DNA from: a virus
Virus record (IMG/VR): IMGVR_UViG_3300028591_000032
Coordinates: 1 to 45,104 of that record
DNA: 45,104 nucleotides
Reading direction: 5' to 3' (one strand)
Positions 1-45,104 of this stretch are shown here, in pieces. Within the stretch, counting starts at the first letter, position 1, and every line of letters begins with the position of its first letter. The notes beneath the pieces are model-generated. The model was given only the letters and a program-made list of their open reading frames with translations, was not told the origin of the DNA and did no database searches. Both the position numbers and the translations under genes were made by a program.

Positions 1-127
1 AACAGGCTGTAGTCCCCGGTATCCCGCCCGATCTGCCTGTACTGGTGCAGGATTCCCATGGCAGTGTCCAGGTCGCTACCTCCCCACGCTTCGGAGGAGG
101 CAAGTCTTTCCGCCTCCCCGTCGAAGT
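1..127. repeat. Terminal overlap, copy 1 (identical to 44978-45104)
   Basis: Direct comparison of the first 127 nt and the last 127 nt of the window. Confidence 0.95.
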
Positions 128-3100
128 CTGCCTGCAGCCGCCCCAGGGCCTCGTTCATGCTGCTGCGCTCGCTGATCGGGTCGTAAGTGAACTTTTCCGG
201 TTGGGTCTCGGCCATCTGCCGCTCCACCTCGTTGTACAGCCCGCCCAGCTCAAAGGCGTTGCTGCGGACCCGGGAGACCTTCCGATTCTCGCGGGGGTTC
301 GTGGTGCGGTAGTCCCCGTCCCCACGGCGCTCAGCCGGACCCGGCACGGTGGGCCGGAAGACCAGCTTCTCGCTTGGGGCGGTTTCGATGGAGGCGCTGC
401 CACCCGCTTCGTCCACCATGCGCTGCGCGGTCTCCATATCCCCCGCTTCCACGGCAGCCAAATATGCCTCGTCATCGATCTCCCGGCTGGCCTTGCCGCT
501 CTCCCGGCTGGCCTTGGCAGTCTCTGACACATTGACTGGCTGATTGTTCTGCACCCGTCGCTCCGTCTCCCGGATGGTCTCGCTCATGCGCTGCCGGAGC
601 TTCCGGTCTCCCAGCCGCTCCCTCAGCATGTCGAAGCCCGCTCGGTAATCCGCCAGCATCTCGTCCTCGATCTCAACCGGGTCCGTGACGCCCAGCTTGG
701 CATAGGCGTTTACGTAGCGGTTCAGGATGGCGTCATAGTTCCGGGATATCTCCGGGTCCGCACGGAGATCGCGGATGATCTCCGCCCGCAGCTCGGGACT
801 CTGCTTCAGTTCCCGGTGCAGCTCTTCGTGCGCGGCGAGCTGCTGCCAGCTGAGTCGGTCATGGTTCACCTGGACCCACATGGTCTTGCCGTCACCGGAA
901 ACGAAGGCCCTTGCCCGGTTCCCGCCCTGGAGGCCGAGCTGGCCCACCATGGGGACGAACCTCACACCCCTGTCTGCGTAGTCCTGTACGGTCTGCCGCA
1001 GCTCGCTGTCCCACAGGTCCTCCGGGAAGTATGCGGCGAGCTTCTCCTCAGTGCCGTTGTCCAGTCCTGCCTCCCTGGCAGAGAATGCGGTCAGCTCTCC
1101 CCGAAAATGTCGGACCTGATCTGTGATTTCAGCCGCTCGATGAGACTGGGATCTGGTTTCCCGGAGGCCCCGGAAGTTCTGGAGGAATCTACCCAGACCA
1201 GCTCTCCGTCCTGCGTCTCCACCAGCGCCCTGCCGCCCTGCTTTCGTTCCGCCGTCTGCTGCAGCGGATTCTCCCGCTGCGGCGTCCGCTCCGCGCCGGG
1301 CAGCTTCAGCTTCTTCTCGTCCATTGCCCCTTACCTCCCCTTCTTCGGATGCAGTCAGAGTATCCCCGGTCTGCTCTGCTGTCAAGCCCGTCTCTAGCAG
1401 ATTCTGCCCCGCCGGAGCGGTACGTTCTTCCGCCTCGCCGGAGGCTTCCGTCTCTTCCGTTCCGCGTATCTGCCCGGCTTCGACGGTCCTCTGCTGCACG
1501 GCGTACTGCCGCACGGCGTCCATGACGGCCTGCCGCCCGGCGGGGTCGTTGCGCACATCGCCCTCTAGTACGCCCTCGCTGCGCAGCAGCTCGATAGCTT
1601 CGGGGCTCTCGATGATGCGCCGTGCATCGTACTGGGTCACCCGCTCGCCGTTCTCGATCTTGGAGAGAGCGTTGGCCAGGTTGACATCCCGCGCCAGCGC
1701 CTGTGCCCTGCTCCCCAGGGAAGCTGCGCCGTACCGCACATAGGGCGATGCGTACTGCACCGCGGCGCTGGCGGCGCCCATGACGCCGCCGGAGAGAGCG
1801 CCGCCCAGGAAGTCCGTCCCCAGCTCTTTGACCCGCTGTGTGAGCATGTTGCTGACGGCCTCCTTGCGGGACATGCCCCCGGCCTCCAGCTCCGCGACGC
1901 CCCGCTTCCACTCGCTCTTGTCCTGTCCGGAAATCAGGTCGTACAGGGCGTCCGCGCCCCAGTTCAGCAGATCGCTGGCAGCTTCCTCGCTGCCCTCGGC
2001 CAGCATGTTCTTGGCGACATACCGGATAACGCCGTCCGCCAGCATATCCGGGTCCAGCAGGGCCTCCAGGCTGACGTTTTCCGTGAGGATCTCCGCCAGG
2101 CCTGCAACGATGCCCAGGGTGAAGGCCCTGGTGCTGTCCATGCCCTGGTCCCGCAGGCTGGTGACCGTGTCCGCCGCCGCCCCGGTGCCCATGATGAGCA
2201 GGGAGGGCTGCGCCAGCTTCCCCAGGGTCTGCGCCAGCTTACCCCCGGAGGCCTCCCACATGCCGCCCGCGAAGCCGCCGGTGATGGCGGACTGAAAAAT
2301 GAAGTCCAGCATGGATATACCCGTCTGGTACAGGAAGGATCCGGATTCCCCCCACTTTTCCGCTTGCTTCGATGCCTCGTCCCGGATGGCGGATGGAATA
2401 TAGCTGAACTGGTTCCAGGCGGCGTTCTGGTCGATATTCCCCGTGGCAGCCATATCGATGGCTTGTCCGAAGAGTGACACGGCCTTCGCTGGGGATGTGA
2501 TGACGCTGTACAGGGAGGTTGCCCAGGGATGCTTCGCCGTCTCTGCGCGCCACCAGTCCTCGTCAGCCTGCCGCTGCTTCCGGTTGAGTCTGGGGGTGAT
2601 CTCCCCGAGGAAAGCGTTGGCCGCGTCCTTGCCCTTGGTGGAATACAGGTAGTTGTATACTCCCCGCTCCTCCTCCGTCATGCGGGTGAGATAGCTCTTG
2701 TCCATGGCGGGGCCGTTGTGGCTGTTCCACTCCGTGAGGATATCGTTGGCCGCGTTCCCCCGGGCGTCGGTGTAGCTGCCGTTGATGATGGCGTAGTCCA
2801 CGTCCCGGTACCCGGAGTCGATGTAGTTTCCCAGCTTGCCGTACCGGGAGCCGCCCTGCATCATGGCCGCGTCCGCACGGCTCTTCTCCCCCCAGTCCGT
2901 CTGCTGCATGAGGGGGAGATACTTGGCCATGCTGTCACGGTATTCAAGATCCTCCAGACGGCTCTGCGCCTGGCTCGCCTGCCCCCGAAGCTGTTCCGCC
3001 CGGGCTCGCATCTCCCCGGCCTGCCGGATGGGGTCCCACACGTTCTCCCGCTGGTACTGACCCACCTGCTCCGGAGTCATGCGGCTGTAGTCCGGATGCA

Positions 3101-3788
3101 GCGCCTCGTATCCCTCCGCGTCCTGTATGGCCCTGTCGGCTCGGATATCCAGCACCTTGGCCTCCGCCAGCAGCTTCTCTCCCTCGTCCGGATTCGCCCG
3201 TGTATACTGATCCAGCGCCGTCTGCACCTCCCGGTACCGGCGCAGGGTGTCCTCATACGCCGCGGCGTTCTGCTGGGCGTGCCCCGCCAGGGTGTTGTAT
3301 TGCTGTGCCGCCATGCGGTACTTGTGTGCAGCCAGCTGATACTGCCCCAGCAGGGCGGTATACTCTTCCCTGTACCGGGAGGGATCGGGGGCCGCCTGAA
3401 TACGGGAGACCATGTCGTTCATGGCCCGTTCCAGGGCCTCGTACCGCTCCTTGGCTCCCTGGGCGTAGGCGCTGAGATTGCCGTTCACCGCCATGGGCTT
3501 CTGGCTCAGCTCCTGCAGCCTTCGGCTGTAGCCCAGCAGGTCATGTTCCGCCTGCGCTGGGTCCGCGGCGACCCGGGCGCCCGTGTCCCGGGTGTCCATG
3601 GCCGCCATGCGGCTCTCCCGGGCCTGCTGCGCGGTGCGGGGCGTCTGCTGAGGCTGCGCGGTCTGCTGCTTCTGCTGCGCCGCCCTGAGCCGTGCCAGCC
3701 CGGTCAGCCCGGAGGTCTCCTCCTCCGTGTCCTTCGTCCCGGACGTGGCCGCCTGAAGCCGCGCCAGCCCTGTCAGTCTCTCTGCCAT
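1..3788 (-). CDS. Giant virion/ejection-type polyvalent-like protein, N-terminal 1,262 codons. It continues across the circular junction into 44977..41236, for 2,509 aa in total.
   Basis: Manual translation from ATG 3788 (SD AAGGAGG at 3794-3800) shows no stop down to base 1. The frame joins MGILHQYRQIG of track ORF 41236..45036 once the 127-bp overlap is removed. It has a Q-rich, coiled-coil-like N-terminus, several Gly/Ala-rich hydrophobic segments (about 1630-2500) and an HEELH motif at 816-830 within AFVSGDGKTMWVQVNHDRLSWQQLAAHEELH. Confidence 0.8.
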   Translation of the reverse strand, partial: MAERLTGLARLQAATSGTKDTEEETSGLTGLARLRAAQQKQQTAQPQQTPRTAQQARESRMAAMDTRDTGARVAADPAQAEHDLLGYSRRLQELSQKPMAVNGNLSAYAQGAKERYEALERAMNDMVSRIQAAPDPSRYREEYTALLGQYQLAAHKYRMAAQQYNTLAGHAQQNAAAYEDTLRRYREVQTALDQYTRANPDEGEKLLAEAKVLDIRADRAIQDAEGYEALHPDYSRMTPEQVGQYQRENVWDPIRQAGEMRARAEQLRGQASQAQSRLEDLEYRDSMAKYLPLMQQTDWGEKSRADAAMMQGGSRYGKLGNYIDSGYRDVDYAIINGSYTDARGNAANDILTEWNSHNGPAMDKSYLTRMTEEERGVYNYLYSTKGKDAANAFLGEITPRLNRKQRQADEDWWRAETAKHPWATSLYSVITSPAKAVSLFGQAIDMAATGNIDQNAAWNQFSYIPSAIRDEASKQAEKWGESGSFLYQTGISMLDFIFQSAITGGFAGGMWEASGGKLAQTLGKLAQPSLLIMGTGAAADTVTSLRDQGMDSTRAFTLGIVAGLAEILTENVSLEALLDPDMLADGVIRYVAKNMLAEGSEEAASDLLNWGADALYDLISGQDKSEWKRGVAELEAGGMSRKEAVSNMLTQRVKELGTDFLGGALSGGVMGAASAAVQYASPYVRYGAASLGSRAQALARDVNLANALSKIENGERVTQYDARRIIESPEAIELLRSEGVLEGDVRNDPAGRQAVMDAVRQYAVQQRTVEAGQIRGTEETEASGEAEERTAPAGQNLLETGLTAEQTGDTLTASEEGEVRGNGREEAEAARRGADAAAGESAAADGGTKAGRQGAGGDAGRRAGLGRFLQNFRGLRETRSQSHRAAEITDQVRHFRGELTAFSAREAGLDNGTEEKLAAYFPEDLWDSELRQTVQDYADRGVRFVPMVGQLGLQGGNRARAFVSGDGKTMWVQVNHDRLSWQQLAAHEELHRELKQSPELRAEIIRDLRADPEISRNYDAILNRYVNAYAKLGVTDPVEIEDEMLADYRAGFDMLRERLGDRKLRQRMSETIRETERRVQNNQPVNVSETAKASRESGKASREIDDEAYLAAVEAGDMETAQRMVDEAGGSASIETAPSEKLVFRPTVPGPAERRGDGDYRTTNPRENRKVSRVRSNAFELGGLYNEVERQMAETQPEKFTYDPISERSSMNEALGRLQADFDGEAERLASSEAWGGSDLDTAMGILHQYRQIGRDTGDYSL
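1091..1324 (-). CDS. 77-aa ORF nested in the +1 frame of the giant ORF (overprinted gene, or the ancestral frame of that segment)
   Basis: ATG 1324 lies 9 nt after GGGGAGG. A hand count gives about 80% G/C at third positions here, against about 47% for the giant frame over the same bases. The peptide composition is ordinary (MDEKKLKLPG...LIERLKSQIRSDIFGES). Confidence 0.4.
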   Translation of the reverse strand: MDEKKLKLPGAERTPQRENPLQQTAERKQGGRALVETQDGELVWVDSSRTSGASGKPDPSLIERLKSQIRSDIFGES

Positions 3789-3798
3789 GCTTCCCTCC

Positions 3799-5721
3799 TT
3801 AGTCCAGGCCGAACTCGTCCATGAGCATATCCACCTCGTATTCGTGGATGAGGCCCTGCTTCACCGCGCTGTTCAGCAGGGTGAGACCCTTGCTGGGATC
3901 CTTCCGCAGCACCTGCCGGATGTTTCTGTAGCCCTCGCTCATGGTCCTGCCGCCCTGGTGCTGTACCCCGGAGATATCGTTGCCCCGGAAGCTGTAGCTC
4001 CCCGTGCCGCTGTCACCCGCTCCCGGCTCCAGCTGCCGGGACGCCAGGATCTCCTCCGGGGTGACCCCCAGCCCCGCCAGCTGCGTGATGGCCACATCCC
4101 GGTCCTCCGCCCCCTGTACCGCGTCGTTCACCAGATTCAGGTAGTCCGGCCTGGTCCGCAGTTCGCCCAGGTCGCCGCTGCCGCTCCCGGCGCCGGAGCC
4201 GGATCCGGACCCGCTGCCGGACCCGCTGCCGGACCCGCCCACGGCTCTGGCGTATACGGTCTGCTCCTGGGGACTGATGCCCAGGGCGGTGAGGCCGCCG
4301 TAGTCTCCGTACTGCGCCCCCAGCTTCGCTAGAGCCAGCCGCCGCTCGTATTCATCCTGGCTCTCTCCGTACCGCCTGTCGTATTCGCTCCATCCCCGGC
4401 TGTAGTCCGTCTCGTCCTGGTATCTCCGGCGGTCATACTCCGTCTGCTCCGCCTGACGTTGACGCTCATAGGCGTCAAGCGCCCGGGAATATTCCGTCTC
4501 ATTTGCGTACACTCCCCGATTATAGGCGTCACGGTCCGCCTGGAGCGCCCGCTCGTAGGCCTCCTGTTCCTCCGTGCGCCGGTCCCCCGTGGTGTCCCGC
4601 CACTGCTGGTAGCTCAGCTCCCGGTCCCGGTTATACTGCCCCAGGACGCCGTTGTTCCAGCGTTCATAGTCCCGGTCCTCCAGCCCCCTGTAGGCGTCCG
4701 CTAGCCCCAGCTGGCGCTGATACTCCGCCAGGTATCGCTCGTATGCCGCCTGGTACAGCTCCGGGATCTTGTCCGTGAGCTGCTGTCCGTAGTAGTTCCG
4801 CTGCTGCGCCGCCGCCGTTGCCCCGTAGGAGTTCGCCAGACCGCCCGTGCGGGCCGATACGCGCCCAAGGGTATCCTCCATGGCCCGTTGCCCCTCCCGG
4901 GTGTATTGGGCCTTGTAGGCCTGCCATACGGGGTCGGATTCCAGGTCGTACTCGAACTTTCCCCGCCCTGCCCGGTCCAGGGCGTCCCGCATCCTCTGAT
5001 CCCACTCCCCGCTCCGGTACTGCGGGGCTTCTCCGTAGCTCCAGAGCGCCGCCTGATAGGGCGTGGCGGGCTGCATGGCGCCCTGCCGGTATGCCCCGGT
5101 GGGGCCGTCGAACTCGCTGCCGTTCAGCCCCTCCTGATAGTACGCAGCGGCGGAGGCGGGAGCTGTGCTCCCGGATACCCCGCCCATGGCTCCGAAGTTC
5201 CAGGGCGTGACGGGATTCGTCCCGCCGAGTACCGCGCCGGAAGCGCCGGTGTCTCCGGTGGCTCCGGTGGCTTCGGAGGTCCCGGCGAGAACGCCCCAGC
5301 TCGTGGGGGTATTCGTCACCGAGCCGGTCTTCCGCACCTCCACGGGCGTGGAGATGTCCCTGGCCGGGTCCGCAGCGACGCCGCGCTGCAGGGTAGGCAC
5401 GTCCGCCATGCGTGTGGTGTCCCCTACGGCCCCCACGGCCTGGTCCCGGAGATCATCCCATTCGTCCAGGCTGAGCCAGCCGTGGCCCTTCTGGATGTCC
5501 AGCCCGCCCCCGGGCTGGCTCGCCGCCGTGACCGCAGCCTGATAGGGCGTGGCAGGCAGTGTCCCATTGTCCGGCAGGTCCGCGAACTGTTCCCCGAAGC
5601 GGTTTGCCCCGGAGAGGTTGGGTCGGCCCGGATTCAGGGGTGCGTCCTTCTGCTGCCCGGTGATCTTCTGCCCGCCGATCACGTCGTCTTCCAGATATAC
5701 GTCCTTCCTGGGCTTAGCCAT
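3799..5721 (-). CDS. 640-aa virion-associated protein of unknown function (Tyr/Arg/Glu-rich repeats and a Gly-Ser linker); candidate internal/ejection protein
   Basis: ATG 5721 follows AAGGAGG. The ORF is long with high G/C at third positions. It contains repeated Y-x-R/E motifs (EYDRRRYQDETDYSRGWSEYDRRYGESQDEYERR) and a (GS)n tract. Confidence 0.75.
   Translation of the reverse strand: MAKPRKDVYLEDDVIGGQKITGQQKDAPLNPGRPNLSGANRFGEQFADLPDNGTLPATPYQAAVTAASQPGGGLDIQKGHGWLSLDEWDDLRDQAVGAVGDTTRMADVPTLQRGVAADPARDISTPVEVRKTGSVTNTPTSWGVLAGTSEATGATGDTGASGAVLGGTNPVTPWNFGAMGGVSGSTAPASAAAYYQEGLNGSEFDGPTGAYRQGAMQPATPYQAALWSYGEAPQYRSGEWDQRMRDALDRAGRGKFEYDLESDPVWQAYKAQYTREGQRAMEDTLGRVSARTGGLANSYGATAAAQQRNYYGQQLTDKIPELYQAAYERYLAEYQRQLGLADAYRGLEDRDYERWNNGVLGQYNRDRELSYQQWRDTTGDRRTEEQEAYERALQADRDAYNRGVYANETEYSRALDAYERQRQAEQTEYDRRRYQDETDYSRGWSEYDRRYGESQDEYERRLALAKLGAQYGDYGGLTALGISPQEQTVYARAVGGSGSGSGSGSGSGSGAGSGSGDLGELRTRPDYLNLVNDAVQGAEDRDVAITQLAGLGVTPEEILASRQLEPGAGDSGTGSYSFRGNDISGVQHQGGRTMSEGYRNIRQVLRKDPSKGLTLLNSAVKQGLIHEYEVDMLMDEFGLD
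4174..4239. repeat. GCY/GGA-type microsatellite encoding the (Gly-Ser)n linker of the 640-aa protein
   Basis: The sequence gccgctgccgctcccggcgccggagccggatccggacccgctgccggacccgctgccggacccgcc encodes GGSGSGSGSGSGSGAGSGSG. Confidence 0.8.
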
Positions 5722-5869
5722 GCTCTTCCTCCTTCTCCAAAGCTCTGAGGCGCGTCTCCAGCCGGGTCAGCTCCCGCTCCAGCTCCGCCTGTATCTCGTT
5801 CACATGGTCCTGGATGGCCTGGGGCTTGTCCCGGACGCCCCGGAGATCCAGCTTCCTCCGAAATCTCAC
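5714..5869 (-). CDS. Small 51-aa coiled-coil protein (below the track cutoff)
   Basis: A GTG start overlaps the TGA of the upstream gene (GTGA), and the 3-prime end overlaps ATG 5721. The translation RFRRKLDLRGVRDKPQAIQDHVNEIQAELERELTRLETRLRALEKEEEHG looks like a real coiled coil. Confidence 0.4.
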   Translation of the reverse strand: MRFRRKLDLRGVRDKPQAIQDHVNEIQAELERELTRLETRLRALEKEEEHG

Positions 5870-8259
5870 GGCATGATCCCTCCGTATACGCTCCCCACGG
5901 TGTACTCCCTGGTGATGCTCATGATAGCGCCGTCCCCCGCGCCCTGGATGCGCAGCAGCACCTTGTCCTGTCTGTGGGGCGCGATGGGGATGATCACCGT
6001 ACCCTCCACCTCGCCGCCGGAGCCGGTCTGGATGGTCCGCTCCGTGCGCTCCTGACCGCCGTATATGGTGCTGATCCGGAGATATTGATCCCCCGCCCCG
6101 ATGGTGAGCGGCCCCAGCTTGTACCGGATGATGAGCCGCAGCAGCCGCTTCCGCTCCGGGGGAAGATCCTCGTCCAGCACTGCCAGGGTGGCGGACCACG
6201 GGACGGCGGAGAGGTAGCCGGAGGAGTTGCCCTCGTCCACGGCCTTGCCGTTCTCCCGACGGCTGGTATACCTGCCGTCCCAGTACAGCACCTCCGGCGC
6301 TTCGCCGCTCACGGCGGCCCTGACCTCCGGGTATGTCGCCATGGAGCGCATCCACAGACCGCGCACCGTGTCATAGCTCAGCGTCTCCCACGCCTCGTCC
6401 TGGGTGTTCCGGGTGTTCAGGTAGTACCGCTTTCCGTCCGTCCAGCCAACGCCGCCGGAGTACGGGATGGTCCCCAGCTTCCCGCCGATGCGCCGGGGCT
6501 CAGCTCCGGCGTAGACGTATACGTCCTCCGGCCCCAGGTAGTACAGCCGCTCCGCGATGTTGATAATGGTCCGGTGTGCCCCCGCCTGTACTCCGGGGAT
6601 AGTGGCCGTCCCCGTGGCGTAGGTGTCCGGTGTGTAGCCCGTGACCTCCACCAGCTTGTCCTCCTTCCAGCAGAGGACGCGCCCGCCGTAGGGGCAGATG
6701 GCGGTGAAATCTCCCTCAGTGCCGTCCGCCGTCTGCCAGGAATCCGTGCTGAGCCCGGCGAACAGGGCGAACACCGTAGGCTCCCCCAGGGCGGAGGCGT
6801 AGATGATTCGGCTGTAGAAGGTACTGAGCGTCCTGGTCTCCGGGTCCCACGCCCGGTTTTGCACCCGGTTCGCCACGCCCCAGAGCCGGTTTTCCGATGC
6901 GCAAATGTAGTCCATGGGGGGGACAATGCGCTCCAGCGTTGCGGTTTCTGTGGAATACTCCTCCGCCGTCAGCTCCGTGGCGTCGGAGCTGGGGAGGTCA
7001 GCTTCCAGAGTCTGCACCGTGGCCCGGATCTCCGGCTGCCAGACGTATACATGGGTCAGGTCCTCCGGGAGAAGGTACAGCACCTGCCCTGCGTACAGAG
7101 CTCCGTCTGTCTCCGTGCGCCATGTCTGCGCCCCGTAGGTGATGTCCAGCCGCGTGCCGTCCGGGATGTCGTTCTCCAGCTCTGCTGTCGCCATAGGCAC
7201 GGTGAAGCTCCCCTCCGCCACCGTGACCGTCTCCTCGTCCACGCTGAGCACCCGAAGATCCTCCCCGTCCCCGAAGCCGTAGAGCGTGCCGGTGATGTTG
7301 AGGATATCCCCCTGGTGGAAGATCTCGCTCAGCACGGGATTCCCGGATGCATTGACCTGGTATACGGTATAGGTGCAGTCGAAGGCCGCGGTGGTTGTGT
7401 CCGCTTCCTCGTTGTGGACGTACTCCCTGGAACGGATGCCCGTGATCACCGCGTATTGCCCCAGGGCGTTGTATCGCGCGGGGTTGGGATTCTGTACCGT
7501 CTCGTGATACGCCTGAGGGTCCTCCGGGTCCCGCACCCGTCTCGCAAAGCCAGGCACATACATCCCGTCCTGCCCGGGGATGAAGATGACGTCCATGGTG
7601 CTGTCGCCGATCCTGTAGTCCACCAGCAGATCGGAGTACATGCCGCCCTTGCTGGCCAGCGCAGCCAGCGCAGTGAGATCCCATGCGCCGTCATGCCAGC
7701 ATGCCTCCACGGCAGCCCTGTCCGTGCCGTAGGTGTACAGGAACAGGTTGACGTCTCCCGCTGCGCCCGTCACGCCCGTGTAGCTCTGGGAATTCCGTAC
7801 CATGGAAGAGGAGAAGGTCCCGATGCTATGATCCGTGAGAGCCACGCCGTGAAGCTCCGCCTCCGCGTTCATAGGCTCCAGCGTCATGCTGCGCAGATCC
7901 ACCACGGCCTTGTCCGGCCAGATGACGAGCTTGGTGTTCACCACGGCCCATTGCTTGGCCCCCGGCGTGAGCGTGCCGATGGCCCGGGGCAGCCCGCTGC
8001 CCTCCTGTAGGTACAGCGTACCCGCGCCGCTTACAGAGAACAGCCGGTCCCCGTCCCGGAACATGTCAGTGCTGCCGGCGTATTCGATGTCCTGAAATTC
8101 CCCCTGTCTGGGGGCGAGATACGGCCACCGCCTGGTGCTGACGTTTTCGCATTCCGTCAGTTCGCCCTCCCGCACGTCATCGGAGCGATTCAGGCCGCCG
8201 AACTGAAGGAGCTGGCGCTGTACCGCGCCGCGCCCGCTGATCCTCGGAAACAGACTCAT
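5866..8259 (-). CDS. 797-aa large structural protein; candidate tail nozzle/hub (beta-rich, propeller-like repeats)
   Basis: ATG 8259 overlaps the xhlA-like stop (ATGA). The N-terminus reads LLQFGGLNRSDDVREGELTECENV. Y/W-rich strand motifs recur (LYYLG, YWDGRY, RYYLN). The size is comparable to podovirus nozzle proteins. The function is an inference. Confidence 0.7.
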   Translation of the reverse strand: MSLFPRISGRGAVQRQLLQFGGLNRSDDVREGELTECENVSTRRWPYLAPRQGEFQDIEYAGSTDMFRDGDRLFSVSGAGTLYLQEGSGLPRAIGTLTPGAKQWAVVNTKLVIWPDKAVVDLRSMTLEPMNAEAELHGVALTDHSIGTFSSSMVRNSQSYTGVTGAAGDVNLFLYTYGTDRAAVEACWHDGAWDLTALAALASKGGMYSDLLVDYRIGDSTMDVIFIPGQDGMYVPGFARRVRDPEDPQAYHETVQNPNPARYNALGQYAVITGIRSREYVHNEEADTTTAAFDCTYTVYQVNASGNPVLSEIFHQGDILNITGTLYGFGDGEDLRVLSVDEETVTVAEGSFTVPMATAELENDIPDGTRLDITYGAQTWRTETDGALYAGQVLYLLPEDLTHVYVWQPEIRATVQTLEADLPSSDATELTAEEYSTETATLERIVPPMDYICASENRLWGVANRVQNRAWDPETRTLSTFYSRIIYASALGEPTVFALFAGLSTDSWQTADGTEGDFTAICPYGGRVLCWKEDKLVEVTGYTPDTYATGTATIPGVQAGAHRTIINIAERLYYLGPEDVYVYAGAEPRRIGGKLGTIPYSGGVGWTDGKRYYLNTRNTQDEAWETLSYDTVRGLWMRSMATYPEVRAAVSGEAPEVLYWDGRYTSRRENGKAVDEGNSSGYLSAVPWSATLAVLDEDLPPERKRLLRLIIRYKLGPLTIGAGDQYLRISTIYGGQERTERTIQTGSGGEVEGTVIIPIAPHRQDKVLLRIQGAGDGAIMSITREYTVGSVYGGIMP

Positions 8260-8525
8260 GATATCCCCATCCTTACCGCGATGTAGGCCAGCAGCGCCGT
8301 CACCACCCAGGTGAGCACGCTCTGGCTGACGCTGTCCCATCGTTTCCCCGGCCTGAGCCGCATTTCCTGGAGGGTTTTAGTCATTTCCTCCAGTTTGCCG
8401 TCGATCTGGTCCAGGCGCTGCTTCAGCAGGGCCAGGGTGATGTCCCCGTTGTGCAGCCGCTCCTCGGCGGCGTCCATGCGCCGCCGAAGGTCCTCGAATT
8501 CCACGCGGGTCACCGGTTCATTCAT
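8256..8525 (-). CDS. xhlA: XhlA-like lysis accessory protein (coiled coil plus a C-terminal transmembrane helix)
   Basis: 89 aa. An N-terminal coiled coil (EDLRRRMDAAEERL...IDGKLEEMTKTLQEM) is followed by the hydrophobic helix VLTWVVTALLAYIAV. It sits next to the holin and endolysin. Confidence 0.55.
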   Translation of the reverse strand: MNEPVTRVEFEDLRRRMDAAEERLHNGDITLALLKQRLDQIDGKLEEMTKTLQEMRLRPGKRWDSVSQSVLTWVVTALLAYIAVRMGIS

Positions 8526-17376: not shown

Positions 17377-19290
17377 TCAAGGTGCGGAGCTGCCTCTCGC
17401 TGGCCCGCCCATCATTCGCATCGCGTCCTGGCGGGCATGCTCCCGCGCCTGGGCGTCGATATTCCGGTACAGCTGCTGCTCCTGCTGCCCCTGCTCAGCC
17501 TGCCGCTGCGCCTCCGCCATTGCCTGCTGCTGCGCCATCTGCTGCATCTGGAGCATCTGCTGCTGCTGTTGAATCTGCATGAGGTACTCCTTTGTGTCGC
17601 TGGCGCCCGGGTAGTGCAGCAGTTCCAGCTTTGTCCAGAAGAGCATCAGCGCCTCCATGCTCCCCGGCTGGCCGAATGCCCCCATCTGGTACATAGCGCT
17701 GGCCTCCTGCCACATCTGGGGCCGATTATTCGCCAGCGGCGTGGAAGAGTCGCAAGAGAAGAGGAAACGATCATCGTCCAGGATGCAGTGCCATTCTCCG
17801 GAGGCGTCCTGTTCATAAAAATCGTACCGGTTGAATTCCTCGTACTGCGCTTCACCCCGGTCATCCGCCGCCACCACGCTGCGGGGCTCGTCCGCGTAGG
17901 CGATCTTGAGCTGCGCGATACGCTTGAACAGCTCCGCGTATGCTGCTTCCTTCAGCACCCGCTTGCTCTCCAGCCGCCCCGCGCTCTGGTTCGCGGCGAA
18001 CTCCTTTGCAACGCCGGACTGCGCCGTGGTGTCGCGCCGCCCCTGGAAGGAATCCGTGATGCCAAGGATCTGCCGGGCCTCCTCGTATACCTGGGCCAGG
18101 TACTCCAGCTCGTACCTCAGATCACCCTTGAACTCATAGACGTCGATGAGCGCCTTGTCCGCCGGGCTCCGGAGGTACCACCGCTCTGCGTCCTCCGGGT
18201 CCGTGCGCAGATCCGCCTTGTCCGGCAGGGTGATGCGGGTGCCCGCCTTGATGAGCCGATCGATGATCTTCCGTTCCAGGCGATTCACCGTGTTCTGCTG
18301 ATCCGCGATCTTGTCCACGTCGCTGTCCCCCAGGAGCTGGCCGAAGAGGCTCACGTTGCGCTGGAGAAACACGGGAAACACGTCCGGCTTGTAGTATGGC
18401 AGCCGCGTGGGCCGCAGCACCACGCTCTGGTCCGGCTCCACAACGGCCTGTGCGCCCGGGATCTCCGTCCCCAGCTCCGTCCGGATCGGGGTGATCACAT
18501 CCTCCGTGTCCATGGCGCTGCCGTCCCGTATGCGGATCTGATAGTCTTCCATGTCCTCCAGGACGGTATCATTGACCCAGGAGATCTTGCCCACGCCGCC
18601 CCTGTCGTTGCGGTAATATACAACGTACTGCGTTACCAGATCCTCAGCGGTGTCGGCCTCCTCGTCCAGCGCCCGCACGTCCGGGTCCGTCTCCGCCTCG
18701 TCCTCCACCGTCTTGCCGTATATGCGCTGGATGTACTCCTTGGTCTGTGGGAGCTTGAGGGCGATGGCGTCCATGTCCTCCACGCGGGTGTACACGCCAT
18801 CCTGCGGCACGATCTGCTTGGGGTGCAGAAGCTGCACCCGCACGTCTCCCACGGTGCTGTGTGTCCTGGTGGAGTTGTCCCACTCCACCAGCCAGTACGC
18901 CCCGCCCTGGATCGGCACGGTGCGCTCGGCCTGGTCGTTCAACTCCTCCATGGGCAGCCGGTCCAGCTCGTTACGGAGCATGTCCTCCAGGATCTTGGCC
19001 CGCTGCTCGTCCGCCTTCCGCCGGGCCGTCACCTTGGGCTGGGGGATGGTGGAGGATACCTCGCTCTCAATGTTTTCGGCAACGATGTTTCGAACGTGCA
19101 CGGCGTCCCGCAGGCTGCCGTCCTTGTCCCTGTCCCTGGGCGTCAGCGGCGTGATCTCCCGCACGTCACCGCGGTACAGCTCCTCCCGCCGATCCATCTG
19201 CGCGATCTGCTCTTCCGCAGCCTGCTCGTTGCGTTCCACCCAGTCCTTCCACTTTTCCAGCCGCTCGTTCACTGTTTTCCATCCCTCCAT
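17377..19290 (-). CDS. Portal protein
   Basis: 637 aa. It lies just downstream of the terminase. The size and position fit a portal, and the C-terminal tail is Gln-rich. Confidence 0.75.
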   Translation of the reverse strand: MEGWKTVNERLEKWKDWVERNEQAAEEQIAQMDRREELYRGDVREITPLTPRDRDKDGSLRDAVHVRNIVAENIESEVSSTIPQPKVTARRKADEQRAKILEDMLRNELDRLPMEELNDQAERTVPIQGGAYWLVEWDNSTRTHSTVGDVRVQLLHPKQIVPQDGVYTRVEDMDAIALKLPQTKEYIQRIYGKTVEDEAETDPDVRALDEEADTAEDLVTQYVVYYRNDRGGVGKISWVNDTVLEDMEDYQIRIRDGSAMDTEDVITPIRTELGTEIPGAQAVVEPDQSVVLRPTRLPYYKPDVFPVFLQRNVSLFGQLLGDSDVDKIADQQNTVNRLERKIIDRLIKAGTRITLPDKADLRTDPEDAERWYLRSPADKALIDVYEFKGDLRYELEYLAQVYEEARQILGITDSFQGRRDTTAQSGVAKEFAANQSAGRLESKRVLKEAAYAELFKRIAQLKIAYADEPRSVVAADDRGEAQYEEFNRYDFYEQDASGEWHCILDDDRFLFSCDSSTPLANNRPQMWQEASAMYQMGAFGQPGSMEALMLFWTKLELLHYPGASDTKEYLMQIQQQQQMLQMQQMAQQQAMAEAQRQAEQGQQEQQLYRNIDAQAREHARQDAMRMMGGPARGSSAP

Positions 19291-19679
19291 GCGCTCACCA
19301 GGGTACGTGCCATATCGTCCACGAGCTGGTGCAGGACCCTGTCGTGCGTGTCGTTGCCGCTGTCATCCAGCAGCCCAAACTTGCAGTGCAGAAGCTCGTG
19401 CACCAGGATCAGCTCATAGTCGTAGGGACGCACACGGTCTCCGTAATACTGCGGGTCCAGGATCTCGATCCTCGCAGTCCGGGTGGACGTCTCGTAGTCC
19501 ACAAATCCGTCCGCATCCGGCGCGGACATCTGGTCCGGCCTCAGTCCGTCCACGACACGGATCTGCCAGTCCTGCAGTCCCAGCATCCTGACCCACCCCT
19601 CCCGGATCGCCTCACGCCGCCTGGGATCTCCCATTACCCACGCGGTCCTCTGTTCTCCTGTCACGGCGGTGCCCCCCAT
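19269..19679 (-). CDS. 136-aa putative zinc metallopeptidase (HExxH) between TerL and the portal
   Basis: The motif is LILVHELLHCKFG. An alternative start is ATG 19634. Confidence 0.5.
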   Translation of the reverse strand: MGGTAVTGEQRTAWVMGDPRRREAIREGWVRMLGLQDWQIRVVDGLRPDQMSAPDADGFVDYETSTRTARIEILDPQYYGDRVRPYDYELILVHELLHCKFGLLDDSGNDTHDRVLHQLVDDMARTLVSAWRDGKQ

Positions 19680-21172
19680 CTGCTGATGATCGCCTCCCGC
19701 TCCTCCGGGGAGGCCCGATAATAATCGTCGTACATGTCATCCGTCCACTCCCGGACGGGCTCCTCTGCCTCGATATCCACCCGCATGCTCTGCTGGGGAC
19801 GAATGTACCAGGCGATGGCCAGGGCCATGACGCAGTCATCATGCGCTCCCGGCTCCGCTGCAGGCCGCAGCTTCTCATCCCGGACAAATGTGAGCATCTC
19901 CTCCAGCGTGGTCCTGTCGTTGATCGTCTCGATCCCGTCACGCATGGCCTCAACAAGGCCGGAGATCATCACAGGCCTGGTGGTGGGCGTGGTGCGGACT
20001 CCGTAGCTCTTGCGGATCGCTCCACTGTAGGTGTCCTCCGCCTCCCGCACATACTGCCGGGGGTATCCCAGCATCTCCAGCCGCTTCACGGGGTAGGTGG
20101 AATAGTTCGCCTCCACGCCGATGAGGGCGTCATTGTAGTATCTTCCCAGGCAGTACGCCTGCTTTGCGAAGGTGTCCTCGTCGTATTGATGCCGCAGCAC
20201 CGCAACCTGCTCACCGGTGATGTTGTCCAGCACCTGGGCCACGAACCAGTCGCTGCCGTCTCCCGCCGTGTCTCCGCCCATGACGTAGGGCCTCCCGGGC
20301 TCCGGCTCCCGGTAGATGCTCACGGGACCGGCGGAATCCTCCACCCACGCCTCATCCGAGAGTTTATACTCAGCTGTGTCCGTGTACGTCCACAGCCCCC
20401 GGCTCACCGGCTCCGGGATCTGGCTGAGCCTATCCGCCACGGCCTGGGCGTTGAAGATCGTGCGCCCGGTCACGCCCCACTCCCCCAGGCAGTACACCGT
20501 GTAGTAGTACGGGTCGGTATCCCGGAATCCCTCCAGGGTTGCCTTGGCCTCCTCGTCCAGGAAGCGGTTGTCGCGGTAGGTGCTGCGGTGCGTCCTGGCC
20601 CTGGGGTCCGGGGCGTCGAAGAACCGCTTCTTCAGCCAATGGGTGATCGATATGGGGTTGAAGCTGAGGATCATCTGCTTGTAATACCTGGTCTCGCCCC
20701 GAAGACGAATGTCCAGCTGGTTGAAATCCTCCTCCAGCAGCTCGCTGGCCTCCTCGATCCAGATCCCCGTGATGGCGTAGATGCTCTTGAGCTTCTCCAC
20801 ATCGTCCAGCCCGGCGAAGAGAATGACACTGCCGTTTGGAAATCGGATCTCCAGATCGCCCTGCATGATCTGCACGCCAGAGTCCGGGTATTGTTGCGCC
20901 AGCTGCCCCCGGAGCTGGGCAAAGCAGCTGTCCCGCAGCGTCCGGGCCACCTTCCTGCACACCAGCCACCGGTGCCCCGGCTCCATGATGCACCGCTCCA
21001 GCACCTTGCGCCCGGCGAAAATGCTCTTGCCGCTGCCCCCGCCCCCCATCAGCACCAGGTACCGATGCTCGTCCCGGAACAGGGGAAAGAAGGTCTTGTT
21101 GCTCGTCTCCCGCAGGGCGATCCATCGCTTCATTACTTGGGTGTCATCCATCACCCAGAAGTTCTCTGGCAC
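19661..21172 (-). CDS. terL: Terminase large subunit
   Basis: Walker A reads LVLMGGGGSGKS, and a C-terminal nuclease-type region is present. An alternative start at ATG 21151 overlaps the TerS stop. Confidence 0.85.
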   Translation of the reverse strand: MPENFWVMDDTQVMKRWIALRETSNKTFFPLFRDEHRYLVLMGGGGSGKSIFAGRKVLERCIMEPGHRWLVCRKVARTLRDSCFAQLRGQLAQQYPDSGVQIMQGDLEIRFPNGSVILFAGLDDVEKLKSIYAITGIWIEEASELLEEDFNQLDIRLRGETRYYKQMILSFNPISITHWLKKRFFDAPDPRARTHRSTYRDNRFLDEEAKATLEGFRDTDPYYYTVYCLGEWGVTGRTIFNAQAVADRLSQIPEPVSRGLWTYTDTAEYKLSDEAWVEDSAGPVSIYREPEPGRPYVMGGDTAGDGSDWFVAQVLDNITGEQVAVLRHQYDEDTFAKQAYCLGRYYNDALIGVEANYSTYPVKRLEMLGYPRQYVREAEDTYSGAIRKSYGVRTTPTTRPVMISGLVEAMRDGIETINDRTTLEEMLTFVRDEKLRPAAEPGAHDDCVMALAIAWYIRPQQSMRVDIEAEEPVREWTDDMYDDYYRASPEEREAIISRWGAPP

Positions 21173-41235: not shown

Positions 41236-44200
41236 TCATTTTCTCGTGGGGAGCATCATCTGTGTCAGTGGGTTCTGACGCTTCGGCTGCACCGCGGGAA
41301 GCTGGAGCGTCTGGCTCCCGGTATTCCGTGCGGATCCGCTCCCGACGCGCCAGGGCGCTTCGTCGATGGTGCTCTCGGCATAACCGTTGTCCCGATACAG
41401 ATAGTCCTTCTGCGCGTTGGTGAGCGGCAGGCTGTTGATGGTGTCCAACACCTTGGCCTTCTTGCTGCCGCTGATGCTCTTGCCGCTTGCGTCCTTGTCC
41501 GCTTCCAAACTCCCGGTCATTCCCTTGTACTGGAGGTATACGGCTGTCTCGATCCCCGCCTGGGTCGCGGCCTGGTAGGCCTTGTCGTAGGCGGTGTTGC
41601 TGTATTCCGTGCCACGGCTTTCCGCGAACGCTTTGGCCGCGAGGAAGTTCGCGTAGTTCCGGATCCAGTTGGCGGTCTCGGCTTTGTCCGCGTCGCTGAG
41701 TCCGGCGTACCAGCCGCTGGTCAGCATCTGCCGCATCAGGCCGGTGATCTGCCCGCCCCGGAATGCCTGCCACTGCGTCCGCTCGTCCGGGGTCAGGGTA
41801 TAGGTCTCGCCGCTCAGCTTCGCCTCATACGGCGGATTCCTCTGGGGCAGTACCGTTCCGCTCCCCGTGGCCTCATACAGCCTGAGCAGCTCATCCCGCA
41901 CCTCGTCCGTGTCGTATACGCTGATGCTCCCGGGATTCAGCAGAGCGTTCATGGCGTTCAGGGTGGGGCTCTCGTACCGTCTCGGCTCGCCCAGGGGCGT
42001 GAGCTTCGGGGCCAGGAGGCTCCGGACTCCGGGGACGGCGTTTGCCGTCCGCGCCGCCGCCTGGTCCAGGAGGTTGCGGGAGCGATACTGGTCCCTGTAT
42101 ACCATGTCTGACGCCTGCGCAAGCTGCCGCACCGGCGCGGGGACAAAGCCGCTCAGCGATGAAGAGGCGATCTCGAAGGGGACCTGCATATACAGGGGCA
42201 GATCGCTCTCCACGTCGTGGTATTGGATCGTGTTGTATATGTTGCTCAGGGTCTGCATGGCGGAGGTGTTCTCCAACGCCAGCCAAATGCCCTGAAGGGA
42301 GTCCTCTACGGTCTTCCCGGCCACTCTCCCATCGGTAAAGAATTTGCCAAGGTCCAGCCCCTTCAGTTCCTTGTCATTTGTGACCAGTGTTGCGATAGTC
42401 ATGAGGCTGTCCAGAGGCTCCAGGAAATTGATGTCGGCCAGCACGTCCCCCTTCTGCGGCTCCGGACTCTTCCCGGAGAGGAGCCGCCCCATGGCCGTCA
42501 CGTTGAGCTGTGTCCCGGTGATGCCCTGGCTCTGGAGCAGAGCGGCGGCGTTGGCGTCCTTTTCTGCTTCTTTCCGCCGCAGCAGGCCAAGCTTCGCCAG
42601 CAGCGCGAACAGCATGATCAGTCCGCTCCCCGTGGTGGCCCGCCCGAATGCCAGAGCGGCATCCCGCTGGGCCTTGAGCGTGCTTTCGCCGCGCCCTGCC
42701 CGGTTCACCGTCTGTGCCAGATGATACAGCCCCTTGACATAACCGACAGGGCTGAACTCGATGGTCCTGTGGATCAGCGCCCCGGGCACCTGGGTATACT
42801 TCACAACCAGGTCGCCCAGGCCGAAATCGTGTACAGGCCTGCCCCTGACAGTCTTGCCGGATGTATTCCCGATTCCGGCCGTGTTCAGGACATCCCGCAG
42901 TCCGCCCAGCATCGTGCCGACGAGCGTGTCATCCTGGAAGGAGCGGTACAGTGCCTCCTGGGCGGCGAACTCCGCCGCCTCCTCCTCCGTCATCTGCCCT
43001 CGCTCCACGAATCTTGCCAGGCTCTCCAAGGTCTCGGCGTAGACGCTGCCCTTGTGGAATTCGTCCGTGGTGTTCAGCTCGTAGCCCAGGATCTGTTCCG
43101 CCCGGGAGAGGATGCGCCCGACGGCGCCGCTGTTGGCCATGCTCCAGGTGCGCCGCGCCCCGGTGCCGTACTTACTCAGATTCCGCTCCCCCGGAGCCGC
43201 GTCCAAAGCGATCTCAAGAAGGTTGCGCCCCGCGCCCTGAATGGCGCCGCGCCGCTTCGCCGCGCTGGCCCAGCTCTTCTGCAGCCCTACGCCGCGTTGA
43301 CCTGTAAACCGGCTCATGATGATGTCCGGCAAAAGACCGAGGTTGTTCGCCGCGGTCTCCACCAGATCGAACACCTGGTTGCTGGTAAGGTTGCGCATGG
43401 CCGTGCGGGCGTTCAGCAGGTGGGAGATCACCTGATAGGTGCTGAGCTTCTCCCCGGCGGTCCTGGGGACGTAGTCCGCAGCGATGAGGCCGAGCTGTAC
43501 CGTGGCCAGAGCCCGGAGGTATTCCGTGTCCGTGGTGCCGCCCAGGACCTTTTCCGCCAGGCGGTCCAGCTTGGTCTTCCGCACGGCAGCCTGTTCCCGG
43601 ATGAGCTGCCGGAGCCCCTCCAGGTCATCCTCCGCGATGGCGTCCAGTGTGTCCGCAAACCTGGCCATAGTCTCCGTGATGCGCCGCTGCTCCGCCCTGC
43701 TGAGCTTGCCAAGCCCCAGGGCGTCCACCACGGCGTCCTCCACGTTAGTGCTGGTGAGACCGCCCAGGTGAATGAGATCCATGAGTCTGTCTCGCTGCGC
43801 GGGCTTGATCCTCTCGCCGGTCTCCCGGAACATCTTTTCCAGCTCACGGTCCGCCCGCTCCTGGATGCGCTCCATGTAATGCCCGGCGATGTGGTTTGCC
43901 GCGATGGCGGCGTCCGCTGCCGGAATGTGCAGCTCGTTGATGAGATACCCGGCGATCCGGTTTGCCGCCTCGGCCTTGGTGAGGCGGGATTCCCGCAGCA
44001 GCTCTGTGAGCCTGATGTCCAGTTCTCTCGCCGCCTCGTCCTCCAGCCTCTCCGTGCGCCCCTCGATGTTGCTCTCCCGAATCAGGTTCCCGATGTGCCG
44101 CTGCACGGCGTCCAGCAGCACCTGGTCTTCTGTACCGACGCGCCGGATGAATTCGTCGGCAATGCGCCGTGCGGCATTCTGCCCGACCCCTGCCGCCGCC

Positions 44201-45104
44201 AGGTCCAGGATATCCTTTTTTGTGATCCCAAGGGCCTCCGCGGACTCCAGGATCGCACGGTACATGGTCCTGTCCAGGTCCTCCCCGTTGTAGCTGATGG
44301 TGGCGTTCAGGAAACTCTCCAGCGCCTCCAGCTTCTCCGGGTCATCGGCGTACTGCGCCCGCAGCACATCCTTGGCCTCCTGCCAGGCGCGGGCGTAGGC
44401 CTCCCGGTTGTTGAGGTAGTCCGTGATGCGCTCGATGGCCGTCCGGGGAGCCTCCCGATCCGCCTGCTGCAGCGCATGCTCGGAAGCGTAATTCACCAGA
44501 TCATCCAGGATGGTCTGCATAGTGGTCTGTGCCCTGGTGGCCTTCGGTTCAATCCGTGCGGAGATCCTCTGAGCCAGACGGTCGCCTGCCTCCGTGATCC
44601 AGTTCTCCACGGGGATCCCGTGGTCCCGCTGCTCACGGAAGATCTGGTAGATCTCCCGGATGACATGCTCGGCGTCCGTGGCCCGCTGCGCGTCTCTCGA
44701 CCCGGCAGGAGCGGACCCCGGGACATCCTCGCCCCTCGCCAGGCCTACGGCCTCCCTGGCGGCGTCTTCGGAAAATTCGTCAGCCGCACCGATGATTCCC
44801 TCCGTGATCCTCCGCACACGCTCCTGCTCAGCGGGCGTCAGCCTGCCTGCGGTCTCACGCATCGTCTCGGATGCTTTCCGCGCTGCCTCGGTCGCGGTGC
44901 GGCTGTACTTTGCGAAGGCTTGCACGAGTTGCCCGCCCTTTGTGCCCTTGCGCTGGATGATGTGGGACCATTCGTGGAACAGGCTGTAGTCCCCGGTATC
45001 CCGCCCGATCTGCCTGTACTGGTGCAGGATTCCCATGGCAGTGTCCAGGTCGCTACCTCCCCACGCTTCGGAGGAGGCAAGTCTTTCCGCCTCCCCGTCG
45101 AAGT
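41236..45104 (-). CDS. Giant polyvalent-like protein, C-terminal part (continues from 3788..1; bases 44978-45104 duplicate 1-127)
   Basis: Track ORF 41236..45036 has no stop upstream of its first Met and is in frame with the ORF that leaves the window at base 1. A second HExxH (HEWSH) lies at 44962-44976. The body is long and helical, with the hydrophobic segment GSGLIMLFALLAKLGLL. Confidence 0.8.
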   Translation of the reverse strand, partial: FDGEAERLASSEAWGGSDLDTAMGILHQYRQIGRDTGDYSLFHEWSHIIQRKGTKGGQLVQAFAKYSRTATEAARKASETMRETAGRLTPAEQERVRRITEGIIGAADEFSEDAAREAVGLARGEDVPGSAPAGSRDAQRATDAEHVIREIYQIFREQRDHGIPVENWITEAGDRLAQRISARIEPKATRAQTTMQTILDDLVNYASEHALQQADREAPRTAIERITDYLNNREAYARAWQEAKDVLRAQYADDPEKLEALESFLNATISYNGEDLDRTMYRAILESAEALGITKKDILDLAAAGVGQNAARRIADEFIRRVGTEDQVLLDAVQRHIGNLIRESNIEGRTERLEDEAARELDIRLTELLRESRLTKAEAANRIAGYLINELHIPAADAAIAANHIAGHYMERIQERADRELEKMFRETGERIKPAQRDRLMDLIHLGGLTSTNVEDAVVDALGLGKLSRAEQRRITETMARFADTLDAIAEDDLEGLRQLIREQAAVRKTKLDRLAEKVLGGTTDTEYLRALATVQLGLIAADYVPRTAGEKLSTYQVISHLLNARTAMRNLTSNQVFDLVETAANNLGLLPDIIMSRFTGQRGVGLQKSWASAAKRRGAIQGAGRNLLEIALDAAPGERNLSKYGTGARRTWSMANSGAVGRILSRAEQILGYELNTTDEFHKGSVYAETLESLARFVERGQMTEEEAAEFAAQEALYRSFQDDTLVGTMLGGLRDVLNTAGIGNTSGKTVRGRPVHDFGLGDLVVKYTQVPGALIHRTIEFSPVGYVKGLYHLAQTVNRAGRGESTLKAQRDAALAFGRATTGSGLIMLFALLAKLGLLRRKEAEKDANAAALLQSQGITGTQLNVTAMGRLLSGKSPEPQKGDVLADINFLEPLDSLMTIATLVTNDKELKGLDLGKFFTDGRVAGKTVEDSLQGIWLALENTSAMQTLSNIYNTIQYHDVESDLPLYMQVPFEIASSSLSGFVPAPVRQLAQASDMVYRDQYRSRNLLDQAAARTANAVPGVRSLLAPKLTPLGEPRRYESPTLNAMNALLNPGSISVYDTDEVRDELLRLYEATGSGTVLPQRNPPYEAKLSGETYTLTPDERTQWQAFRGGQITGLMRQMLTSGWYAGLSDADKAETANWIRNYANFLAAKAFAESRGTEYSNTAYDKAYQAATQAGIETAVYLQYKGMTGSLEADKDASGKSISGSKKAKVLDTINSLPLTNAQKDYLYRDNGYAESTIDEAPWRVGSGSARNTGSQTLQLPAVQPKRQNPLTQMMLPTRK
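44978..45104. repeat. Terminal overlap, copy 2 (identical to 1-127)
   Basis: Direct comparison of the two window ends. Confidence 0.95.

Follow-up and report, generated by a model that had tools for sequence, protein, structure and literature searches.

Genes embedded out of frame in larger genes are known in phages, lambda Rz1 in Rz and genes of phiX174 being examples. We analysed 45,104 nucleotides of viral DNA (IMG/VR virus record IMGVR_UViG_3300028591_000032, positions 1 to 45,104); this whole stretch is called the window below. In it, a small open reading frame (ORF) at 1324-1091 on the minus strand lies in the +1 frame inside a giant ORF, and this paper is concerned with that small ORF, the giant protein around it and their relatives.

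In phage lambda, Rz1 is embedded in the +1 frame of Rz, the two genes encode a two-component spanin and their products act together (PMC5295617, PMC6139136). As in Rz/Rz1, the small gene of the window lies wholly within a larger phage gene in the +1 frame and has its own ribosome-binding site and start codon, and the arrangement is widely conserved. The proteins and their biology are unrelated to those of Rz/Rz1, with neither a lipoprotein signal nor a lysis cassette. The host gene is also different, being a giant multi-domain gene of >1,250 codons, with an overlap situated in a linker where only one frame is truly constrained in sequence, and the embedded family is widespread outside overlaps.

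In classical overprinting, an older gene gives rise within its own sequence to a new protein of restricted taxonomic range (PMC8227390, PMC3494269). The locus resembles viral overprinting in that the DNA is read in two frames, one with genome-like codon usage and the other giving a disordered peptide of odd composition. In contrast to the classical case, the embedded protein is widespread and looks older, whereas the host linker appears to be younger, a direction that we infer. Polymorphic toxin systems offer another comparison; their immunity genes are separate, lie downstream and do not overlap the toxin gene (PMC3482391). Like the small partners in toxin-immunity or enzyme-inhibitor pairs, the small gene is tightly tied to one predicted enzymatic domain and recurs in varied architectures. 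Unlike those, it lies upstream and is embedded in the same ORF, and binding or inhibition of the domain is hypothetical.

The giant protein itself is closest to the polyvalent proteins of Iyer et al. (2017), which have zincin-like metallopeptidase (MPTase) domains and for which autoprocessing was proposed (PMC5512222). It resembles them in being a giant multi-domain phage protein encoded beside genes for virion-internal proteins, in having an HExxH...E domain and in containing the linker motif YLAAVEAGDMETAQRMVDEA; its relatives carry the domains LPD23, ddrB-ParB or PBECR1. The predicted layout of the HExxH domain is that described for the zincin-like peptidases of polyvalent proteins (PMC5512222). 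However, this domain matches no Pfam model, and the paper contains neither the words 'frameshift' and 'overlap' nor nested genes. A literature search gave no description of an embedded gene inside polyvalent proteins. What is new here is the giant multi-domain host gene, the confinement of the overlap to a linker, the older-looking embedded gene and the mobility of the cassette.

The probable embedded gene and its codon signature

We consider it about 85% probable, judging from the sequence, that 1324-1091 (minus strand) is a real, independently translated small gene, contained entirely in the +1 frame of the giant virion/polyvalent-protein gene. The giant ORF (3788..1, minus strand) begins with the ATG at 3788-3786 and continues for 1262 codons without a stop until it is cut by the window edge. 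The embedded gene (1091..1324, minus strand) extends from the ATG at 1324-1322 to the TGA at 1093-1091 and would encode 77 amino acids. It is preceded by the Shine-Dalgarno (SD) sequence GGGGAGG (1334..1340, minus strand), whose GGAGGT core ends 8 nt before the ATG and which is translated as Gly-Glu-Val in the giant frame. Two codons ahead of the ATG, a TAA in the +1 frame (1331..1333, minus strand) shuts that frame upstream. At the other end (AGC TGA, 1091..1096, minus strand), the TGA lies within the giant-frame codons CTG ACC (Leu-Thr) that open the HExxH...E domain. GGGG runs are present at 1330-1327 and 1102-1099. The positions of the nested ORF, its SD sequence, the two +1-frame stops and the G-runs had been given in an earlier reading made from the letters of the window (the sequence-only reading), and all of them hold.

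The G/C content at third codon positions (GC3) was followed along the giant ORF in 60-codon windows. It was 0.80-0.95 outside the linker, fell to 0.45-0.55 between ~1480 and ~1090 and was again 0.83 by 1088-909; where it drops, giant position 1, which is the third position of the +1 frame, climbs to ~0.8. Over the nested ORF the GC3 was 0.81 in the nested frame versus 0.47 in the giant frame. Similarly, a codon log-odds model trained on the remaining giant ORF scored the nested ORF at +0.29 in its own frame and at -0.26 in the giant frame, whose score elsewhere was +0.53, and it favoured the nested frame from ~1355 to ~1150. The sequence-only reading was right about the +1 codon signature and about the normal giant-frame composition after the segment. 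It was also right to place the anomaly over the nested ORF, but the giant frame is already poor at ~1490-1340, and the anomaly is wider than had been claimed.

This wider region corresponds to an inter-domain linker of the giant protein (1094..1490, minus strand), in which the giant-frame codon score is ~0 or negative. Its first part, 1490-1340 (minus strand), sits immediately upstream of the embedded gene; it is acidic and of low complexity, rich in Glu, Thr, Ala and Gly (EETEASGEAEERTAPAGQNLLETGLTAEQTGDTLTASEEGEV), with a coding score near zero in all three frames. The Gly/Ala/Arg-rich part, 1340-1094, is no more than the -1 reading of the embedded gene. Because open +1 stretches of ~78 codons occur at 27% of positions in the GC-rich giant ORF of the window, the open +1 frame alone is unconvincing. 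The features that go beyond chance are the codon signature, the SD-ATG pair and above all the conservation across relatives.

The N-terminus of the small protein, which contains an L-K-L-P motif, is predicted to be disordered and to be followed by a beta-hairpin (ALVETQDGELVWV) and, at the C-terminus, a helix (SLIERLKSQIRSDIF). The AlphaFold2 (AF2) model had a mean pLDDT (predicted local distance difference test) of 67, with strands at residues 32-36 and 42-46 and a helix at 59-74. In a Foldseek search of the model against the PDB, nothing was found with E <1, and the exact small protein of the window was absent from the gene-position index.

A scan of the window showed no internal promoter-like or terminator-like site near the embedded start, and because of this both products would come from the same mRNA. 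One late mRNA would give rise to both. Ribosomes starting at the ATG at 3788 would cross the region in the giant frame and make the Gly/Ala/Arg-rich linker; other ribosomes would initiate internally, at GGAGG-8 nt-ATG, and produce the small protein of 77 aa, with its disordered LxLP tail, beta-hairpin and C-terminal helix. Translation of the small gene would end at the TGA that overlaps the two opening codons of the next domain.

Conservation and selection in relatives

A tblastn search with the giant protein led to an IMG/VR contig (L001) whose identity was 43% in an upstream domain and 27% in the domain that follows the anomaly. Its giant ORF is open to the contig end, and a +1 ORF lies at the matching place, with GGAGG 8 nt before its ATG, and ends exactly at the onset of the downstream homology. 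The small peptides of the window and L001 matched each other with a pairwise E of 0.001 (a single comparison). When IMG/VR was searched with an alignment of the downstream domain, a search that is blind to the small ORF, five further contigs were found and all five had the same layout; the window and these five contigs form the unbiased set. Further loci were retrieved with small-peptide profiles from IMG/VR, JGI metagenomes, ENA and Logan, which gave a non-redundant set of 21 loci. No match to the small proteins was obtained by tblastn among GenBank phages and PLSDB plasmids.

In 19 diverged loci the small ORF is nested in a giant ORF that is open for 1,258-3,067 codons, and the embedded +1 ORFs of the relatives encode 57-114 aa. 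In each of the 21 loci, at least 5 nt matching AAGGAGGT precede the ATG at a distance of 3-9 nt, usually 8 nt. A stop in the +1 frame is found 0-30 codons before the ATG in 20 of the 21 loci and 204 codons before it in the remaining one. The stop of the small gene falls in every nested locus in the first codons of the next domain, either as a TGA inside L-T, L-N or L-S codons or as a TAA inside V-S or I-S codons. The flanking domains in independent assemblies with this two-frame layout share 20-60% protein identity.

The peptides share an N-terminal L-x-L-P, a C-terminal helix and, between them, the core YLMExxNGxLVxVPxxRLxxWxxAQ, for which the subgroup of the window has ALVETQDGELVWVDSSR. At identities of 25-60%, the loci retain the start, the SD, the position of the stop and the motifs of the peptide. 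We compared the translations of both frames between loci, and it was the small frame that was conserved (median z 7.6 versus 2.5 for the giant frame; small frame higher in 84% of 171 pairs). In 18 of the 19 relatives the codon usage, too, favours the small frame (mean log-odds +0.25 nested versus -0.22 giant), and the mean GC3 in their overlaps is 0.77 in the nested and 0.43 in the giant frame. When all giant ORFs were scanned blindly with the codon score, the embedded ORFs came out at the top.

Additionally, variable sites were counted in 17 close contigs. Inside the overlap, 8, 1 and 3 of them fell on small-frame positions 3, 1 and 2, respectively, and in the upstream region, which is read in the giant frame only, 33, 24 and 115 fell on giant positions 1, 2 and 3. 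The peak of variable sites shifts to the small-frame third position inside the overlap (Fisher p 8e-4). None of the 19 diverged nested loci has a giant-frame stop within the small gene. By chance, a -1 frame as long as this is open at 0-42% of positions, with a mean of ~20%, so the joint chance of this outcome is ~1e-14 if the loci are independent and ~6e-5 if only six clades are counted. The giant-frame composition over the overlap, pooled from the relatives, was 17% A, 16% G and 14% R. The patterns of conservation and substitution track the small frame and point to purifying selection on it. Selection on the giant frame is of another kind and keeps it free of stops, the sequence of the linker otherwise mattering little, and the overlap would code in two frames for one real protein and one linker that avoids stops.

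Some relatives showed features of their own. In L086 (3508), L087 (403) and L088 (399), the public gene calls place the start of the giant gene at an ATG that lies within the conserved HExxH domain, and the called start M (of 'MW') aligns with conserved domain residues. These calls split off the small gene, with the consequence that the predicted protein loses the linker and the N-terminus of the domain. L086 (ENA ERZ27257320 k141_2497679) also has a called gene of 371 aa at 1496-2611, which contains an HPD motif like that of J-domains and whose Arg-rich tail has an off-frame look. In L086 the giant frame opens at 2458 and overlaps this tail (region 2458-3134); the overlap may be a frameshift or a fusion point. 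The context of L086 is an early region (helix-turn-helix repressor, DUF739) and not a virion module.

We also noticed a second family of embedded +1 ORFs, of ~65 aa, in three of the relatives (L080 4890-5093, L118 6819-7013 and L119 within 1300-1536). They lie 0.9-1.9 kb downstream of the first embedded gene in the same giant genes and match one another with E values of 1e-31 to 1e-41. The copies in L080 and L118 have an SD-ATG pair and a codon score above that of the giant frame, and the copy in L119 was not flagged by the scan. A third, unrelated embedded +1 candidate of 103 aa is present in L086 at 7223-7534. The giant ORF of the window is cut too early to show ORFs of the second or third kind. 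The second family and the third candidate hint that the design is more general.

The small-protein family, the HExxH...E domain and the giant protein

By sequence similarity, the small protein belongs to a widespread, unnamed family that exists outside overlaps. A HMMER search of 1.84 billion cluster representatives gave 296 clusters (50% identity) at E <=1e-3 and 108 at E <=1e-10, and the window ORF matched the family profile with E 5e-17. Most members have 57-100 aa. Many are genuine, ordinary cellular proteins of 200-520 aa that contain the ~60-aa domain in frame, often at the C-terminus, together with transmembrane segments, zinc ribbons, Mrr_cat nuclease, HHH_3, TPR or YHYH domains. A giant protein with the peptide in frame was not found among 43 word-indexed matches or the best 150 of the 296 profile matches, the longest of these 150 having 520 aa. 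In Pfam and PHROGs, 44 members gave no consistent match, with scattered sub-threshold noise, and ten proteins gave none in NCBIfam.

One phage contig, IMGVR_UViG_3300045988_135915, contains both a nested copy (L094, 5992-6165) and a free-standing paralogue (L093, 4590-4930). A perfect TTGACA-17-TATAAT promoter, a GGGAGG SD and a terminator-like hairpin accompany the free-standing copy, which has its ATG at 4670 and its TAA at 4853-4855. Over the first 36 residues the two copies are near-identical, which suggests a recent duplication.

Directly after the small gene, the giant protein has the HExxH...E domain (564..1094, minus strand), with HEELH encoded at 830-816; the conserved Glu, within DEMLADY, is encoded at 662-660. 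H90, E91, H94, E146 and D150 are invariant in 17 domain sequences. An AF2 model, built from 4 sequences, shows a helix, three strands, the HExxH helix and the Glu-bearing helix, with both motifs in predicted helices and a pTM (predicted template modelling score) of 0.64. The top list of a Foldseek search with this model includes IrrE/PprI, CapP and MMP-11, which is suggestive, but none is significant, all having E >0.2, the best of the three having E 0.5. A profile of the domain gave no real match in Pfam, including the polyvalent-protein models, or among PDB sequences, and a word-indexed search with the domain returned one protein. According to the motifs and the model, the domain is a probable zincin-like metallopeptidase.

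The small gene stands before each of the 42 HExxH domain copies in the retrieved loci, a linkage that is biased, as most loci were found via the small gene and the unbiased set comprises the window and five contigs. In many cases the 700 aa upstream of the pair and the 900 aa downstream are unrelated from locus to locus. Of two further homologues of the domain, a distant chromosomal one (P0003) lacks the small gene, and for the other, P0001 on an NCBI contig, a gene of 81 aa is called directly before it. Together, the small gene and the HExxH...E domain form a conserved cassette in otherwise mosaic giant proteins. The fixed position before the peptidase-like domain suggests, by analogy, that the small protein is its partner, as Rz1 is for Rz; it would act with the adjacent domain, for example by controlling autoprocessing.

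The genomic surroundings of the giant ORF are those of a phage, whose host is probably a member of the Oscillospiraceae or of other Clostridia. Upstream of it lie the genes for an internal virion protein (5866-8340), the portal (17377-19290) and the large terminase (19661-21172), the giant ORF being downstream of the first of these; primase, helicase and Sak4-like replication genes are also present further along the window. Residues 274-701 of the giant protein match phrog_22978, a profile of 3513 positions and unknown function, with E 2e-60. Neither the giant protein, of which the window holds 1262 aa, nor the small one had a Pfam match, and megablast of the giant gene against GenBank phages gave none. 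From the virion-gene context and the Pfam domains of the relatives (LPD23, ddrB-ParB or PBECR1), the product of the giant ORF appears to be a phage polyvalent-type protein.

The motif YLAAVEAGDMETAQRMVDEA lies at 400-470 (minus strand; giant residues ~1106-1132). It is found near-verbatim, often as repeats, in >70 otherwise unrelated IMG/VR contigs and in several database proteins, and it dominates word-based searches with the giant protein. In a word-indexed protein search with a hybrid query, the DMETAQRMVDEA motif swamped the output and the overlap was not visible. The minus strand of the window has two more large ORFs, 41236-45036 (1266 aa) and 3799-5721 (640 aa), neither of which matches PHROG. 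A circular window in which the giant ORF would be joined to the 1266-aa ORF was ruled out since the frames do not meet.

Alternative explanations and meaning

Several points weigh against an independently translated gene beside a peptidase domain. The support for translation of either frame is at the level of sequence. The function of the small protein has no backing from a Pfam, NCBIfam, PHROG or structural-neighbour match, its tie to the peptidase-like domain is based on position, with the bias in the 42 linked copies described above, and the zincin identity is based on motifs and a medium-confidence model. In addition, one relative has a stop in the giant frame. This is L125 (ENA ERZ27280649 k141_605656, 531 nt), whose small gene is the closest relative of that of the window, with 62% aa identity; its positions 78-80 are a giant-frame TAG, where the window has CAG (Gln) at 1367-1365, 13 codons before the embedded ATG. 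This TAG may be recoded, may result from an error in assembly or may be a nonsense variant that splits the giant gene.

The same TAG, just upstream of the small gene, would agree with the giant ORF not being one protein, the upstream, small and HExxH genes being separate and the open frame incidental or rarely used. The public gene callers split the region in this way (L086, L087), the giant frame of L086 opens only 225 codons upstream with an unclear start, and a -1 frame of this length can be open by chance at 3-42% of positions. Nevertheless, the frame is open in all the diverged nested loci, with the very low joint chance calculated above, and no long contig has a stop that ends the upstream part. 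There is also no start codon in the stretch from the stop of the small gene to the conserved residues at the N-terminus of the HExxH domain, and the ATGs chosen by the gene callers fall within the domain and remove conserved residues, so we regard separate genes as unlikely. Programmed frameshifting, with a +1 shift from the giant ORF into the small frame or a -1 shift at the small-ORF end into the HExxH domain, seems very unlikely. It would fit the often C-terminal place of the small domain in larger cellular homologues, and the internal SD would be able to stimulate a shift, as internal SDs can do in prfB and dnaX. However, the +1-frame stop shortly before the ATG in 20 of 21 loci leaves almost no room for entry, the ATG and SD spacing is of the initiation type in every locus, and no conserved slippery heptamer was seen at the start or the stop of the ORF in the 21 loci. 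Around the embedded start, an Rfam scan found no element and RNA folding no unusual or stable structure (fold z-score 0.25), and free-standing copies of the small gene occur.

The sequence-only reading had offered, besides a gene overprinted on a linker, a pair of compensating +1/-1 indels, of biological or sequencing origin, in which case the small frame would be the ancestral one of the giant protein here. An origin in assembly at the two G-runs was considered with it. The G4 runs at both boundaries in the window and the off-frame look of the giant-frame peptide would agree with this, but the idea did not survive comparison and its probability is close to nil. The two-frame layout is common to 19 independent, highly diverged assemblies from different projects, and the small frame is closed on both sides, including the stop upstream of its own SD-ATG. 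The boundary sequences differ between loci and have no homopolymer run in common, which leaves the G-runs without a role, and the matches searched contained no giant homologue with the peptide in frame. It is likewise highly improbable that the small ORF is a chance open frame or the decaying, functionless relic of a captured gene. Open +1 stretches of this length are frequent in the giant ORF and no function of the small protein is known, but its start, SD, stop position and motifs are kept in strongly diverged loci, substitutions gather at its third positions, and the blind scan ranks the embedded ORFs first.

An embedded, independently translated gene remains the preferred reading. The small frame is probably the older one, because its codon usage is native and its family is wide outside overlaps, and the linker is probably the younger, barely constrained frame. 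The linker would have originated from an upstream ORF that came to run across a small gene already in place. Of the overprinting proposed in the sequence-only reading, the separate overlapping gene stands, with its ORF, SD-ATG pair and peptide in 19 relatives and the giant frame open across it, but the implied direction is probably reversed. With an embedded frame that looks older and a host linker that looks younger, the locus would be the reverse of textbook overprinting, and the overlap travels with one domain.

For annotation, the small ORF lies wholly inside the giant ORF on long IMG/VR contigs, and the callers that found it, on short or ENA contigs, began the giant gene at an internal ATG in the conserved domain. 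The family of 296 clusters has no name in the sources checked. The change T1323C would remove the embedded start (ATG to ACG), while the giant-frame codon would still specify Asn (AAT to AAC).

The current view of polyvalent proteins is that they are injected and that their peptidase domains then cut them into functional parts. A small protein encoded just before a peptidase-like domain is a candidate regulator of this cutting. It is possible, though we hold it as a tentative and rather doubtful proposal drawn by analogy, that the small protein is a dedicated partner (inhibitor, activator or chaperone) of the zincin-like domain that times the autoprocessing of the virion-delivered polyvalent protein, and that +1-frame partner genes in linkers are a general design, the latter because a second embedded +1 family and a third candidate are seen in relatives. 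If this is true, the domain and its regulator could move jointly as one cassette during domain shuffling.

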